Source: Neodothiora populina (lineage: Eukaryota). Taken from it: a DNA stretch of 64,000 bases. Below the pieces are notes generated by a model, which saw only the letters and a list, made by a program, of their open reading frames with translations, was not told where the DNA came from and did not search any database. Numbering within the stretch: position 1 is the stretch's first letter; each line of letters starts with the position of its first letter. The translations under genes and the position numbers were made by a program. Location: NCBI RefSeq assembly GCF_041146345.1, contig NW_027191404.1, positions 1,674,001 to 1,738,000 of the forward strand. Reading direction: 5' to 3'. Of this stretch, positions 12,346 through 26,583 are shown one piece after another.

Positions 12346-12469
12346 TTCCTCTTCGAGTACTTGATATTGTAAATGTCAATGCTTTCGCCTCTCTCTACAT
12401 AAGGTATCCATCGAGACAACATCAGCAACCTCTGTTATTTATTGTTCTATGACGGATACCACTGTCGTG

Positions 12470-15016
12470 ATGTATGTATAATCGACGTTGCTGCTGATTC
12501 ACAGATCACAGTGCTCACTCATGATAGGGGAGCCATTGCAGAAAAGGAAAACCTCGCCCCGACGCCAATTGCCACTCAAAAGCGTGGACGACTTTACGGA
12601 GGAACACCGAACTCAATTGATAGACTCAGCAAGCCTTTCAGATGTCCTGGATCCGCTATAGCTGCTCGTTCGTCAGAGAAGCCATCTCGTAAACGCAGAA
12701 AGGTCAATTATGCCGATGCGGATGGCAATCCAGAGGAAGGTGACAAGCCATATTGCAACGATGACAGACTTGCCTTGGCGACGCGAGACGTCAATCGATT
12801 TCCGGTCTTCGAAGTCAAGGATAAAGAGACGACCATCCGTAGAAGATTTGCTGTGCCATTGATAAACAAGGATGTCGGCGGCTACAATTCTGCTCGTCCT
12901 CCGCCATTGCTGGGCTTGCGGCAGGGCGCTGTATTTGTGGCCAAGCCGCTGCACGACCCTAGTGGTGAGTTTGCAATCGTGTTGTACGATCCAACAGTCG
13001 AAGACAAGCCGGCGGTGACGGAAGGCGAGGATCCGGAAGCAAAAACCGAGGACCCTGCACCCCAGCAACTTCAGGAACCTTTGATGCACAAGAGCCTAGC
13101 AGAGATACTAGGGTTGAAGAAGAAAGTAGAAGTACGACCAAGAGTTCCAGTCGTCATAGACCCCAGACTGGCAAAAGTACTGCGTCCTCATCAGGTCGAA
13201 GGTGTCAGATTCCTATACCGCGCGACGACGGGCTTGATCGATCCGAACGCCCAAGGATGTATCATGGCAGACGAGATGGGGCTGGGCAAAACACTACAGT
13301 GCATTGCGTTGATGTGGACTTTGCTCAAGCAATCTCCAAACGCAGGAAAGTCAACTATACAAAAGGCGGTCATTGCATGTCCTTCGAGTTTAGTCCGCAA
13401 CTGGGCAAATGAGTTGGTGAAATGGTTAGGTAAGGACGCCATCCACCCTTTTGCCGTTGACGGAAAAGCCACAAAGGACGAACTCATCCAGCAACTACGG
13501 CAATGGTCCATCTCCAGCGGCCGATCCGTGGTGCGTCCTGTACTAATCGTCTCCTACGACACTCTTCGTCTTTACGCGGATGAGCTCAAAGACACCAAGA
13601 TTGGCCTGCTTCTCTGCGACGAAGGCCACAAGCTCAAAAACTCTGACAGTCAGACTTTCGTCGCGTTGAATAGCCTAAACGTTCAGAAGCGCGTGATCCT
13701 ATCTGGAACGCCAATCCAGAACGATCTCACAGAATACTTCTCCTTACTTAACTTTGCAAATCCCAACTATCTTGGTACGCGTAACGATTTCAGAAAGCGC
13801 TTCGAGCTGCCGATTTTACGAGGCCGTGATGCTGCAGGAACTGAAGCGGACCAAAAGAAGGGTAATGAGCGACTGGCAGAATTGCTCACATTGGTCAACA
13901 AATTCATCATACGTCGCACCAACGACATCCTGTCCAAGTACCTGCCCGTCAAGTACGAACACGTTGTTTTCTGCAACATGGCGCCTTTCCAGAAGGATCT
14001 ATACAACCACTTCATCCAGTCACCAGAGATTCAGAAGTTGCTGCGTGGAAAGGGCAGTCAGCCGCTCAAGGCTATCGGTATGCTGAAGAAGCTTTGCAAT
14101 CATCCTGATTTACTGGATCTTGCCGAAGACCTACCTGGTTCAGAAGCATTCTTCCCGCCAGATTACGTGCCTAAAGATGCTCGCGGCAGGGATAGAGACG
14201 TCAAGACATGGTACTCTGGCAAAATGGTGGTGCTTGATCGGTATGCAATACGACGATTCTATCAGAGGAGCATGACGACTAACAGTGAGATACAGCATGC
14301 TTGCCCGCATCCGCGCGGATACGAATGACAAGATTGTGCTTATTTCCAACTACACGCAGACATTGGACATGTTCGACAAGCTCTGTCGGGCTCGAAACTA
14401 TGGGTCCCTCCGTCTCGACGGTACAATGACAGTCAACAAGCGGCAAAAGCTTGTCGATAAATTCAACGACCCTGAAGGCAGTGAATTTGTTTTCCTTCTG
14501 TCCTCCAAGGCTGGAGGATGTGGTCTCAATCTCATCGGGGCCAACCGACTGGTACTCTTCGACCCTGACTGGAACCCTGCAGCTGATCAGCAAGCACTGG
14601 CTCGTGTCTGGCGTGACGGACAGAAGAAGGACTGTTTCGTGTATCGATTCATCGCGACCGGTACGATCGAAGAGAAGATCTTCCAGAGACAATCACACAA
14701 GCAGTCACTATCGTCATGTGTTGTAGACTCAGCGGAAGACGTGGAGCGGCACTTCTCACTGGATAGTCTGCGAGAGTTGTTCCAATTCCGACCCAACACG
14801 ACGAGCGATACGCACGAGACCCTCAAGTGCAAGAGATGCAAGGACGGTAGACAATTCATCAAGGCGCCGGCGATGCTGTATGGTGACACGAGTTCTTGGA
14901 ATCACTTTACGAACGACGGAGAGAAAGGACCGATGGGCAAGATACAGGATTTGCTACTGCGGCAGGAGACGAGCGAACCAGATGTCAGTGCAGTGTTCCA
15001 GTACATCAGTCACTGA
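12470..15016 (+). CDS. RAD54: DNA repair and recombination SNF2-family ATPase Rad54; introns 12472-12527 and 14241-14295
   Basis: Rad54_N motif [58 protein letters not shown] and [11 protein letters not shown] motifs; ends FQYISH. Confidence 0.97.
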
Positions 15017-21859: not shown

Positions 21860-24140
21860 ATGTCTTCATGCTTTGGGTTCCGTAAATCCAAGGGTGATGA
21901 TCGGGAGCCTTTGCTGCCGCAGTATCGCCATGATACCACTTTACAGCGTGAGCTTCATCAGAAGCTCCACTCATATCAGATGATTCGGGCCATCTCAGAT
22001 GGATACATGCCATCCAACGAACAGCTGATAATTAATCTCCGGTCCTTGCTATCAGCAGATATACTCAATCCTCAAAACCAGGAATTGAGTGATTCAGGCA
22101 GGCTGCTGATCAAACACACCAAAAGATGGTTGCAGGATTTTATTGAGCTATTGAATAACAAGAACAGCGAGGATCAGATTCAGGACTTCCTTTGGTACCT
22201 GTCCAAGTCTAGGATCTCCGTTGACGTCGATGATATTGCACATCGGGCCGTCAAGGCTAAGTCCAAGGCAGACAGTGCGGCTGGTATGTATTGCAATTGG
22301 CATTCAGCTCATAATGGTAACACTCTAATTTCATATAGCCTATCGAAGCTTGCAGACTGTGGGATCACTATTGCTGACCAACTCCGATTTTCGGATATTC
22401 CTTTCGGACCTGAATGTTGTCGGCCGGGAAGTGTTCAAGGATGCAGCTTTCTCACTCTCCAATGTTGCAGAAGAGGCGGGCAAGCAGATTGAACCTACTC
22501 CAACAGAGCAGGGGAAGCTTCAAGAGCCTGGGGCTGACGCCGGACCTCCGCCTTCGGCTAAAGAGCTTGGCGACGATGTAGCCGACATCACCAAAGTTGT
22601 GGCTAACGGGGCTGCTGATGTTGTGCATGATACTGAACAAAGCGTTGAAGCCAAGTTGACCGGTGATGAAGGTCAAGTAATGCTCAGCCGCCTGAAGCAG
22701 GCTGTACTAAAGTTGAGAAAGAGACCTGACTACTCCGACTCAGTCTCAACACTTTCGTTACTACTCAAGAGATATGCTTTGGTGTACTCGAGAGCGATAC
22801 AGGAAACAGTCGATACTCTAGACGATGATGTTCACGAAAATGCTGCTCTCGACAAGGCAGTCAAAAATCTCTGGACTTTTATCAAGTCTTTTGGAGATCG
22901 AAATGCGTGGGAGAAGACCGAGGAGAAGTTTGGCCAGGTCATGTCTCACAAGGAGAACGATCCAGAGTTCGAGAACTTGATGGTCGAAGTTGGAAACTCG
23001 CTGCAGGCTCTGTTGACCGATCCAGACTTCTTCGATCACGCACAGGAGAAATTCGAGGAATTGCGCGAGAAATCGCGCCGCATCGGCACCGAGTCATCTT
23101 TACGTACCGACGTTGATGCGCTTCTAGCACAGCTTCAGGAGACCGCCAGTTCTGTCCTCCATGACAAGGACGTCCTTCGTCTGTTACACGGGGGGATGCA
23201 GATCTTCCGCATCCTGTCTCCTCTACATGCGACTGCCAATGGTGAACTTATCACGGATGCGATCAATGTTTTCATCCCCCTGCTGATCGCTGCCGTGCAA
23301 TACGTGCCTATCCCAAGACTAGAGGTCAGCACACCTGATGTTGACCTTCTCCTAGAGAACCTCATCATCGAGCCAGGTCATACTGTGAACCATACCTCGT
23401 TCCTCCCGTACAAACTTCGAATTGAGACGTACAATGACCTCGAAATCCGAAAGGCCAAGTTCAGAACGACATCAACGTCATCTCATCTAGTGACCATCAA
23501 GGTTGATGGTATATCTGCTCGAGCCGATGAGATGGGTTTCTGGATGCGCGCCCATTCAGGTCTGTTCCGCCTTGCCGACGAAGGTATTGCATCTTTTGCC
23601 TTGGATGAGCGCGGACTTGATATTCACATGGATGTCGAAATTGCCAAGGACAGGATGGAGAGCATCCTTAGCCTCAAGGCTGTTCGAGTTCACGTGCATA
23701 AATTGAATTACCAGCTACGAAAGAGCAAATTCTCTTGGATTGCGTGGCTGGTAAAACCCTTCCTGCGTCCTATCGTGCGCAAAGTCATGGAAAAGCAGCT
23801 CGCCAACGCCATTTCTGATGCGCTGCACGCTGCAAACCGCGAGCTACTCTACGCCCGTGAGCGCCTTAGAGCGACACGCATTGCAGACCCTGATGATCTT
23901 ATGACCTTCTTCCGCGCTATTGCAGCGAGACTCACTCCAGAAGAGGACCCTGACCTGTACACTCGCGTGGGAGTGGCACAGCCAGGCAAGGGAGTTTTCA
24001 AGGGAGTATACGCACCCGGCAGCGTCGTCAAGGTTTGGAACGAGGAGGCCGCACAGGCGCAGGAGAGAATCGACGAAGGTTCAGAGACAAGGGGCTGGAG
24101 AAACGAGATATTCGATCTGCACACTCGCAACCTGTCCTGA
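21860..24140 (+). CDS. Conserved fungal DUF4449 / BPI(TULIP)-fold protein; intron 22284-22338
   Basis: GYMPSNEQL, NSDFRIFLSDL, YVPIPRLEV...DLLLENL and LADEGIASF motifs typical of this family; beta-rich C-terminal half. Confidence 0.75.
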
Positions 24141-24588
24141 GGCTGTCATAGTCACCACACTCGACTGCGAACAGCAAACACTACATGCGTTGGCACACGT
24201 ATGTGTATTTTTATGCCGCATTGACAAATAGCAGGATTAGCTGCAAATCTTCTACTCCAGGTAACCTAGCCGTGTATGCTTTTTATTCATTCCATAGTAC
24301 TTGTAATGATGTATTCAAACTATTACTATGCGTTATCATAATATAGCGAGGATCGATGTTGACATTGAGTTGAGATTTCGTATGCGGCTATACGCAGCTT
24401 CCCGTGATTCTGCAGCCCAACGATCTTGGACGTGAAGTAATTAGTCCCGACCCGTTTGCTGTAGATAAAACACCATTTTTGACCTACCATTAACAATACG
24501 GATAAACTTCCGTGCAAGTAATCTGGCTTCAAGGAACTGCTGGGGTCTACGTTCGCGTCTGATTACTTGTCACCGACAAACACGAAAG

Positions 24589-26583
24589 ATGGGTGGCTCA
24601 ATAACCGATGGAGAGCACCTTCACGGTTTGGTGGACATGGGTAGGTGAGTGCCAGATTTTTATTCTATTCATTCGTCGCGTTGTTCTCCCAATTTTGTAC
24701 AGTTTGACAAAGCGATCCTTGGGACCAGGAGGGATATATGTTGCCGTCGAGAAAAATATGCACGTTTTGTTCTGTCCGTTGACGGGTTCTTCTCTTATCA
24801 TTTCATGTTTTCAAAACCCAATTGAAGCAATCAACCCACGAACATAAAAGTCGAATTCTAGACTTGATGTCTAAAATAAAGCATTCAAAAATGGGCAATG
24901 AACAACGTCCTCTCCAACTAACCACACCTTGTCAAATCAAACAGCAATGGCGTCCGCTTCTCCATATCTGATCTATCACCACCAACCACGCGCATTCTAC
25001 CCACTCTATACACATCTCGCGCAGGAATATCCCTATATGATGCCCAGTACTCTCCGAGCGGAGAGCGCGTCGCCATTCCCGAGAAGATCATCAAGGCCGT
25101 GACCAACGAACTCGAACAATTCAAGCGCACATGCGCAGACTTCGGAGTGCCAGCGGCAAACGTGACTGTTTTGGCGACGGAAGCCACGCGTACAGCGATC
25201 AACTCCGGGGACTTTCGTCAGCGCATCAAGGACGTCACCGGGTGGGAAGTCAGCATGCTGGCCAAGGAGGAAGAGGGACGAGTGGGTGCTCTGGGTGTGG
25301 CGACTTCGCTTGGTGTCGTGCGGGGTCTAGTCATGGATTTGGGGGGAGGTAGTACGCAACTAACATGGTTGACAACCACGCCCGAAGGCGCGATCCAAAT
25401 GCCAGCCCGTGGAGCAGTGAGCATGCCCTTCGGCGCCGCAGCGCTGACCAGACGGCTCGGCGAAGCAGAACGAGCCGGAGGAAACGCCAGAGATGTCTTC
25501 GCAGACGAAGTCAAAACGACCATCAAGAACGCGTACGAGAGTCTCGAGGTGCCAGCCGAACTCCACCATTTAGCCAAAGCCGAAGGAGGATTCGCTCTCT
25601 ATCTCTCCGGGGGTGGCTTCAGAGGATGGGGCTTCGTCCTCATGTCCCAACATGCAGTGCAACCGTACCCGATCCCAGTGATCAACGGACTCGTCGTGCA
25701 ACGGTCCGACTTCCTAGACACCGTAGGCGTGCAGGCGACACTGCAAGAAGACATGGACAACGACGATGCCATCTTCCGCGTCTCGCAACGAAGAGCAAGC
25801 CAAGTGCCCGCGGTGGCCTTCCTCGTGCGCGCGCTGAGCGAAGCACTGCCCCAGATCAAACAAGTGCGTTTCTGCCAGGGCGGAGTCAGAGAAGGCTTTC
25901 TCTTCTCGCGACTGATAGACGATGTGCGCATGCAACGGCCCGTCACAGTCGCCACGCAACCACTGGCTGCCCCCGGCGCCTCGCACTACGCAAGTCTCCT
26001 CGCAGCATCACTACCCGCCTCGCCATCCTCTTTCACCGACAGACAAGCAGGCTCAGAAGCGACGTTCACCCCAGCCCTGCTCGCCGCTCTAGGGAACATG
26101 CTGAATTACTACTCGACGCACCCAAAGGACATCCGTGCGGCGTCTGCGCTGCGTTCGACGACGACGGGTGTTCTGGCATCCGCGCATGGCCTCGCACACG
26201 AAGAGAGAGCCATCCTGGCACTTACATTGTGCGAGCGCTGGGGCGGCGCTTCGGACCTGCCGCCTGCGGATCTGCCGTTCTTCAGGTCGATGCAGGCGTT
26301 GGCGGGCGCTTGGTCGGCGTGGTGGGCTCGTTATCTGGGTCGTGTGGCGGCGCTGGTCGGAGAGGTGTATCCTTCGGGCAGGGGCCGAGAGGTGCTCGCT
26401 TTGTCTGCGAGGTGGGGTGCCACGGGTAAAGGAAACAATCAGATCGTGCTGCAGGCTAGGACGAAAGACGGTCGTGTGCGGGAGCTGTTTGGAGATGAAC
26501 TGGCTCAGATTGGCAAGGCGGGTAAGAAGAAGCATTGGATTGGTGGCAAGGATGGTTGTGGTCATAGAGTAGAGGTTGCGTGA
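24589..26583 (+). CDS. RTG2: Retrograde regulation protein Rtg2-like (Ppx/GppA ASKHA family); single 300-nt intron 24645-24944
   Basis: Exon 1 MGGSITDGEHLHGLVDMGS joins NGVRFSISDLSPPTTRILP (DMGSNG phosphate motif); ATEATR, EEEGR, DLGGGS, SGGG and GGVREG motifs. Confidence 0.9.
24701..24847 (+). ncRNA. Putative intronic box H/ACA snoRNA (snR10/SNORA21-like), two LSU rRNA guide pockets
   Basis: Hairpin-hinge-hairpin-tail; H box AAAATA 24753-24758; ACA 24842-24844; in both hairpins the 3' pocket strand starts 14 nt before the box; both pockets complement conserved LSU rRNA sequence as I recall it. Confidence 0.78.

Follow-up and report, generated by a model that had tools for sequence, protein, structure and literature searches.

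Yeast snR10 is independently transcribed. Psi2923 is guided by the 3' hairpin of this RNA only, the 5' hairpin serving 18S pre-rRNA processing. In vertebrates, a single box H/ACA snoRNA, ACA21 (SNORA21), serves two sites. According to the published chicken data, the ACA21 homologue GGgACA45 is 131 nt long and resides in intron 3 of RPL23; its 5' hairpin guides 28S-3886 with 6+5 nt of complementarity and its 3' hairpin guides 28S-3955 with 6+4 nt, the latter site being common to snR10 and snoR74. The sites of human ACA21 are entered in the tables as 28S:4391 and 28S:4460, also 69 nt apart, and a published table gives ACA21 as the guide of human 28S U4401. The earlier note on this DNA had stated that ACA21 guides both sites and snR10 only Psi2923, and the published tables bear this out.

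Homologues of snR10 have been described in Pezizomycotina, where their annotation is intergenic or 3'-UTR. Nc ACA13 (Nc_HACA_13) is the published homologue in N. crassa, is 208 nt long and intergenic; Trnc_1472 of T. rubrum, 188 nt long, was placed in the Rfam snR10 family by the authors who described it. Literature searches for a snoRNA in an RTG2 intron gave nothing relevant by title among the papers listed, and a search combining SNORA21 and snR10 returned one review, with nothing on targets.

The element described here lies in intron 1 of an RTG2 gene, within a window of 64,000 nucleotides (the whole stretch of DNA analyzed, to which all coordinates refer; Table 1). The RTG2 frame is restored only by splicing out 24645..24944. 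The spliced product reads ...HGLVDMG-S-NGVRFSISDL across the junction, and carries the Pfam domains Ppx-GppA (6e-38) and RTG2_C (2.7e-66). RTG2 relatives were found at three loci in a metagenome scan. One (L112, 72% identity) has no 5' end, and is unread at the intron site; in the two others (L113 and L114, 43-47% identical) the HGLVDMGSNG motif is unbroken, the intron being thus absent at this codon in 2/2 relatives with a readable 5' end. No ORF call in the relatives matched the pseudo-protein translated across the intron. The 300-nt intron in this ascomycete RTG2 gene is real, splice signals, frame and intronless relatives all confirming the length given in the earlier note. The accompanying statement that introns in the window are mostly 50-65 nt long is upheld in rough form only, since a crude splice-signal scan placed 15 of 50 candidates in the 50-74 nt bin, the remainder being scattered.

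Table 1. Positions of the RTG2 gene features and of the parts of the candidate H/ACA element in the window.
Feature	Position	Strand	Description
RTG2 exon 1	24589..24644	+	from the ATG to the splice donor; MGGSITDGEHLHGLVDMG plus 2 nt of the Ser codon
RTG2 intron 1, 300 nt	24645..24944	+	GTGAGT at 24645, CTAAC 24918-22, CAG ending 24944
RTG2 exon 2, rest of coding region including stop	24945..26583	+	open frame, translation, Pfam domains
Candidate H/ACA snoRNA, ~147 nt	24701..24847	+	ends inferred from first hairpin and ACA + 3 nt
Hairpin 1	24703..24751	+	lower stem 24703-08/24746-51 (TTGAC 24704-08 / GTCGA 24746-50, one T.G pair), pocket, upper stem ATCCTT 24715-20 / AGGGAT 24730-35, 9-nt loop
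Hairpin 1, 5' guide strand AAAGC	24709..24713	+	pairs with rRNA GCUUU
Hairpin 1, 3' guide strand TGTTGC	24739..24744	+	pairs with rRNA GCGAC(A/G), one G.U
H box AAAATA	24753..24758	+	fits ANANNA; 14 nt after 3' guide start
Hairpin 2	24768..24841	+	interrupted lower stem, pocket, 4-bp upper stem CTTC 24789-92 / GAAG 24824-27, 31-nt loop
Hairpin 2, 5' guide strand GGGT	24784..24787	+	pairs with rRNA ACCC, U-U-C left unpaired
Hairpin 2, 3' guide strand CAATC	24828..24832	+	complementary to rRNA GAUUG, immediately 5' to the A-loop uridine
ACA box	24842..24844	+	14 nt after 3' guide start

All of the motifs named in the earlier note (stems, pockets, AAAATA, ACA) are found in the sequence where it had placed them, and so is the hairpin-H-hairpin-ACA layout. 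An ANANNA motif lies in the hinge, an ACA on the 3' side, and the distance from guide to box is the canonical 14 nt in both hairpins (24739 to 24753, 24828 to 24842), target uridine and box being 14-16 nt apart in H/ACA RNAs. In hairpin 1, unpaired ATA (24736-38) and G24714 (3+1 bases) separate the guide from the upper stem; hairpin 2 has no clean lower stem adjoining the pocket. The H box has A at position 2, vs. G in about 80% of fungal H boxes, and the length of 147 nt lies at the lower end of the fungal range, 90% of fungal H/ACA RNAs spanning 148-266 nt. A second ANANNA match, AGAAAA (24750-55), overlaps the H box and lies partly in the lower stem. A C/D box snoRNA in the intron was ruled out, neither TGATGA nor CTGA being present; H/ACA is therefore the only snoRNA class that this intron could host.

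Each pocket is complementary to eukaryotic LSU rRNA on either side of an unpaired U-N, as H/ACA guides are. Hairpin 1 pairs with GCGAC(A/G)UUGCUUU (site 1) by 6+5 bp, two target bases being left unpaired. Hairpin 2 pairs with the A-loop sequence GAUUGUUCACCC (site 2) by 5+4 bp, a weak match of 9 bp which leaves three target bases unpaired, an atypical number, two being expected. rRNA was monitored by a contig scan, which gave 111 loci, three of them eukaryotic LSU fragments; of two scans of viral contigs, one gave a 3'-terminal LSU fragment and the other nothing. Both target sequences, which the earlier note had given, are present in 3/3 Rfam-confirmed eukaryotic LSU fragments spanning the region (L035, L060, L083), and are 69 nt apart in the two fragments that have no masked bases. 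The background on the target side was made up by these three fragments, of 590-1233 nt, and by random sequence. Against it, pocket 1 alone finds site 1 as the best-scoring U in 3/3 fragments. The match to site 2 alone is not distinctive, since 499 of 286,798 random U sites reach its score, which is surpassed by that of another site in L060.

Motifs, spacings and target pair taken together suggest that RTG2 intron 1 probably encodes, on the sense strand, a real and compact SNORA21-like box H/ACA snoRNA. After splicing and debranching, trimming of the intron would leave a two-hairpin core of about 147 nt, which would be bound by Cbf5, Nop10, Gar1 and Nhp2 and accumulate. The 5' pocket AAAGC/TGTTGC would place for isomerisation the first U of GCGAC(A/G)-UU-GCUUU, corresponding to U4401 of human 28S and U2854 of yeast. 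With the 3' pocket GGGT/CAATC, the residue so placed would be the A-loop U of GAUUG-UUC-ACCC, which corresponds to yeast Psi2923 and human U4470. The further proposal that ribosome modification may be tied to RTG2 expression and retrograde signalling finds no support, and is pure speculation.

The candidate shares with vertebrate ACA21 the pair of sites and the order of the hairpins, with pairings of 5+6 and 4+5 bp, and would be, as ACA21 is, a compact, intron-encoded dual guide. It differs from ACA21 because no sequence or structure homology is detectable (Rfam, E<=10), because the host is RTG2 rather than a ribosomal protein gene (human ACA21 resides in an RPL23 intron), and because three bases stay unpaired in the A-loop pairing and hairpin 2 has a very weak upper stem. 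At gathering score, no match to any Rfam family is found in the whole window. In segments of 361 nt and 153 nt around the candidate, searched with Rfam 15, no H/ACA family, the snR10 and SNORA21 models included, is found at E<=10. Chance is taken to account for the near-matches to snoCD11 (16.8 bits, E 2.1, minus strand) and to MIR5286, U6 and REN-SRE (E 5.6-6.9). The covariance search against snR10, SNORA21 and fungal H/ACA models that the earlier note had proposed is thus negative at E<=10, and the label of orthologue used there is not borne out, no Rfam family matching at this threshold.

As in yeast snR10, the 3' pocket fits the A-loop site, if weakly (9 bp); unlike snR10, the candidate is intronic, much shorter, and features a guide-like 5' pocket. 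The closest parallel in geometry is found in Nc ACA13, the 3' hairpin of which has a 5-bp stem below the pocket, UGGGUG on the left side, CAAU on the right side and ACA 14 nt on, an arrangement resembling pocket and lower stem of hairpin 2. Inspection by eye of the 5' half of Nc ACA13 revealed no site-1 guide motifs. Both Pezizomycotina homologues have a long, GC-rich upper stem and measure 208 and 188 nt, vs. 147 nt in the candidate, and Trnc_1472 is reported to match Rfam snR10, whereas the candidate does not. Nor does the candidate reach the length of about 190-250 nt expected of the snR10 family. As a longer snR10 homologue, encoded on its own, is already present in Pezizomycotina, the candidate would be an extra or a replacement guide, and not simply the snR10 orthologue.

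The candidate folds weakly, and folding statistics lend it no support. The MFE of the whole 147-nt element is -23.2, vs. -31.2 for shuffled sequences (z +2.0), 198 of 200 shuffles folding at least as well. RNAfold yields both stems of hairpin 1, at -10.5 kcal/mol (z -0.34), a value no better than that of shuffles. Hairpin 2 is weak (-7.8 kcal/mol, z +0.84); its lower stem is formed according to RNAfold by 24774-75/24838-39 and 24778-82/24831-35, and in an alternative fold GGGTT (24784-88) pairs with AACCC (24833-37). With pockets and boxes constrained as single-stranded, the best fold differs from the two-hairpin layout. A stable-fold signal was sought along the intron, and no 80-nt window has z < -1.65; extending the 3' hairpin to the next ACA (24902) gave no better fold, and this alternative was rejected.

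Folding no better than shuffles at any point, the lack of Rfam matches and the poor structure of hairpin 2 are in line with an ordinary intron, long and 5'-proximal, which hosts no RNA and in which the H/ACA pattern and the complementarities are coincidental, and were spotted by a reader knowing the targets. This is the strongest of the rival explanations, rather unlikely on balance, and to be taken seriously. Short bipartite matches become common once criteria are relaxed, the window containing 7 site-1-like and 9 site-2-like matches under intermediate criteria, and 35 and 40, respectively, under loose ones; by extrapolation, each pocket would match by chance roughly one to a few U sites per full rRNA set. 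What an ordinary intron accounts for poorly is the combination. A single known snoRNA family has these two targets, served by its hairpins in the order seen here; each guide is exactly 14 nt away from a box, and the hairpins adjoin on the sense strand of an intron of outlier length. Even under loose criteria, the window contains no adjacent pair other than the candidate, and pairs of the site1-then-site2 type, under intermediate criteria, number 5 per 10 Mb of random sequence of intron-like composition and 0 per 10 Mb of window-like composition.

Strict criteria, by which guides, stems and box had to equal or surpass those of the candidate, gave one match per target over both strands of the window (2 x 64,000 bases), both matches corresponding to the candidate, which is hence the only strict dual-target match in the window, the significance of this count being inflated as the criteria were chosen after seeing the candidate. 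The same criteria, applied to 10 Mb of Markov sequence, yielded 7 site-1 and 13-21 site-2 matches, i.e. 0.7 and 1.3-2.1 per Mb. Since about 1-2 such hairpins are found per Mb of random sequence, the occurrence by chance of two of them, side by side and in the right order, is very unlikely. A better-looking A-loop match, of 4+10 bp, is found inside a coding frame at 12964-12996, and shows that a single match of this kind may originate by chance, as an ordinary intron would require.

That the element is a decaying or non-functional H/ACA copy, with an intact 5' and an eroded 3' hairpin, making little or no stable snoRNP while a canonical snR10 encoded elsewhere does the A-loop job, is highly improbable: hairpin 1, with 6-bp stems and a guide match of 11 bp, is indeed well formed, in hairpin 2 the upper stem measures 4 bp, a mismatch lies beside target U+1 and a self-complementary alternative fold exists, and longer stand-alone snR10 homologues are found in N. 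crassa and T. rubrum, but the two boxes and the two 14-nt spacings have all been kept, and erosion is not expected to spare these.

If the compact SNORA21-like snoRNA is real, a filamentous ascomycete may have an intron-encoded dual-guide H/ACA RNA with the architecture of animal SNORA21, a wider claim, which falls a little short of an even chance. The two-site design (the A-loop U and a U 69 nt upstream) would then predate the split of fungi and animals, and the 25S rRNA of this lineage would carry a pseudouridine at the position corresponding to yeast U2854, near the peptidyl-transferase centre, a modification that budding yeast lacks (to our knowledge, U2854 is unmodified in S. cerevisiae). 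The candidate would exist alongside a long snR10-type RNA, or replace it. It would add to the snR10/SNORA21 guide group a fungal member with the animal-type two-site design, would bear on the gain and loss of snoRNA guide functions between fungi and animals, and would be an example of a functional H/ACA RNA missed by both covariance models and folding statistics. Even so, it would open no new kind of biology. Outside fungi and animals, plant snoR74 is listed for the A-loop site, and Entamoeba ACA-Eh-LSU2997a/b for the site equivalent to U4401. These are single-site assignments, vs. the two proposed for the candidate, and were compared by table entry; the listings indicate that both sites are old snoRNA targets.

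Intron 1 of RTG2 probably hosts a real, compact H/ACA snoRNA of the SNORA21 type. Judged only from motif and complementarity statistics, the reading is plausible; with a documented parallel in ACA21, it stands on firmer ground than most analogies of this sort. The host gene product features Ppx-GppA (6e-38) and RTG2_C (2.7e-66) Pfam domains, and the protein-atlas clusters closest to it are ascomycete 'retrograde regulation protein 2'. Splicing of the intron is confirmed by the peptide ...HGLVDMG-S-NGVRFSISDL, uninterrupted in the metagenome RTG2 relatives L113 (43% identity) and L114 (47%). These two distant relatives, the ones with a readable 5' end, lack an intron at this position; a third (L112, 72% identity) is cut off before its 5' end. 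Neither TGATGA nor CTGA is present in the intron, which excludes a box C/D snoRNA.

Table. Features of the RTG2 locus and other segments discussed (window coordinates)
Feature	Position	Strand	Remarks
RTG2 exon 1	24589-24644	+	ATG at 24589; sequence and open frames
RTG2 intron	24645-24944	+	300 nt; GTGAGT at 24645, CTAAC 24918-22, CAG at 24944; sequence and open frames
RTG2 exon 2	from 24945	+	sequence and open frames
Candidate snoRNA	24701-24847	+	about 147 nt
Pocket 1 (hairpin 1)	24709-13, 24739-44	+	AAAGC, TGTTGC
H box	24753-58	+	AAAATA
Pocket 2 (hairpin 2)	24784-87, 24828-32	+	GGGT, CAATC
ACA box	24842-44	+	
Rejected A-loop match	12964-13002	+	match at 12964-12996, in 641-codon open frame 12403-14328
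Open frame of upstream gene	22329-24140		

The motif pattern described in the earlier note is correct: each named element lies at its coordinate, and the 3' pocket strands of both hairpins begin 14 nt before their own box, the canonical spacing. Omitted there were G24714 and ATA 24736-38, unpaired between guide strands and upper stem of hairpin 1, and the 31-nt loop over the 4-bp upper stem of hairpin 2. The hairpin 2 lower stem favoured by RNAfold (GTTGA 24778-82/TCAAC 24831-35) consumes part of the CAATC 3' guide strand; in an alternative fold, GGGTT 24784-88 pairs with AACCC 24833-37. Folding statistics lend the candidate no support. Its MFE is -23.2 kcal/mol vs. -31.2 for shuffles (z +2.0, i.e. 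weaker folding), hairpins 1 and 2 score z -0.34 and +0.84, the entire intron +0.77, and no 80-nt window along the intron has z below -1.65. The Rfam search proposed as a check matched no family (0 in the whole window at gathering score), and at E<=10 only unrelated chance matches were obtained on 361 or 153 nt around the candidate.

Target sequences were taken from eukaryotic LSU rRNA in contaminating contigs of a prokaryote genome collection. A 14-base A-loop motif was found there at 111 loci, three of which (L035, L060, L083) are LSU rRNA (LSU_rRNA_eukarya by Rfam, 401-677 bits). L060, 1233 nt long and assigned to a bacterial MAG, carries a group I intron at 62-373 (Intron_gpI, 116.5 bits); L035 and L083 are also eukaryotic rRNA contigs within prokaryote assemblies. 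Site 1, ...AGCGACG-T(T/A)-GCTTTTT..., and site 2, ...GATTG-TTC-ACCCAC..., are both present in all three fragments. In fungi, A replaces the last G of GCGACG; T24739 of pocket 1 can pair with either base. Pocket 1 can form 6+5 bp on site 1, including one or two G.U, with 2 bases unpaired, and pocket 2 can form 5+4 Watson-Crick bp on site 2, with 3 bases unpaired.

The same target pair is known from vertebrates. According to the chicken snoRNA table, GGgACA45 (131 nt, RPL23 intron 3), the ACA21 homologue, uses 6+5 nt of its 5' hairpin to guide 28S-3886 and 6+4 nt of its 3' hairpin to guide 28S-3955, the latter site being assigned also to yeast snR10 and plant snoR74. The two residues are 69 nt apart, as are sites 1 and 2 in both LSU fragments free of masked bases. 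Human ACA21, hosted by an RPL23 intron as well, targets 28S:4391 and 28S:4460 in the numbering of the source paper, and an Entamoeba survey attributes U4401 of human 28S to ACA21. In yeast snR10, Psi2923 is assigned to the 3' hairpin only, and 18S processing to the 5' hairpin. The comparison drawn in the earlier note is borne out by this literature: the candidate shares with ACA21 both its pair of targets and the order of the hairpins that guide them, and is similar to it in guide lengths and overall size.

A longer snR10-type RNA is already known from filamentous ascomycetes, so that the candidate would act as a further guide or as a substitute for it rather than as the usual snR10 of fungi. 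N. crassa Nc ACA13 (208 nt, intergenic) was matched to snR10 in later work, and T. rubrum Trnc_1472 (188 nt) is assigned to Rfam snR10. In the published supplement sequence, the 3' hairpin of Nc ACA13 holds the A-loop guide (UGGGUG + CAAU), a 5-bp stem under the pocket and ACA 14 nt past the right strand. Hairpin 2 resembles it in geometry, but the Nc ACA13 upper stem is long and GC-rich; no site-1 guide was seen on reading the 5' half of Nc ACA13. In a fungal snoRNA survey, H/ACA RNAs have a median length of 188 nt (90% within 148-266), about 80% have G at H-box position 2, and 15% are not predicted to form both hairpins; against these figures the candidate falls on the unfavourable side in folding, length and H-box position 2. 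Among the papers listed in a literature search for a snoRNA in an RTG2 intron, none was relevant judging by its title.

That the pattern arose by chance is a possible, if doubtful, explanation. Each pocket-target match taken alone is unremarkable: the pocket 1 score at site 1, the top U in all three LSU fragments, is equalled by 204 of 286,798 random U sites, and that of pocket 2 at the A-loop by 499, with another site in L060 outscoring it. Single matches arise easily, as indicated by a 4+10-bp A-loop match (GGTG ... CGATCCAACA, ANANNA motif 15 nt further), rejected as a chance match since it lies in a coding frame, with 19 nt between strands. Both strands of the window were scanned for hairpins combining guide match, upper stem, lower stem and box. 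Under strict (as-good-as-observed) criteria one site-1 and one site-2 hairpin were found, both the candidate (7 and 13-21 per 10 Mb of random sequence); under intermediate criteria, 7 and 9 (304-445 and 858-1459 per 10 Mb); under loose criteria, counted in the window only, 35 and 40. A site-1 hairpin followed at 60-140 nt by a site-2 hairpin occurs, under intermediate criteria, 5 times per 10 Mb of random sequence at intron-like composition and 0 at window-like composition. The candidate is the sole adjacent pair in the window at loose criteria, adjacency being judged by eye from hit lists. Strict criteria were set after the candidate was seen and intermediate ones were not fitted to it, which places the real significance somewhere between the two sets of figures. 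What carries weight is the combination: the hairpins match both targets of a single known family in the correct order, each has its box 14 nt away, and the two are adjacent within an outlier intron, on its sense strand. A decaying snoRNA copy is improbable.

If real, the SNORA21-like RNA adds to an already known kind of RNA; a coupling of ribosome modification to RTG2 expression is speculation. Some 100-400 nt before the start codon of RTG2, L113 (190-480) and L114 (2590-2880) share a well-conserved non-coding block, with CCAAT-like GCTGATTGG directly ahead, hairpin-like CACGAGCTGCTGACCGTG and three GGGGTAA-like repeats; it was not seen upstream of RTG2 in the window. A contig of sequencing run X3 ends at 24330 (+) and then extends into 22 A's lacking a genome counterpart; this resembles the upstream gene's poly(A) site and suggests that X3 is cDNA.
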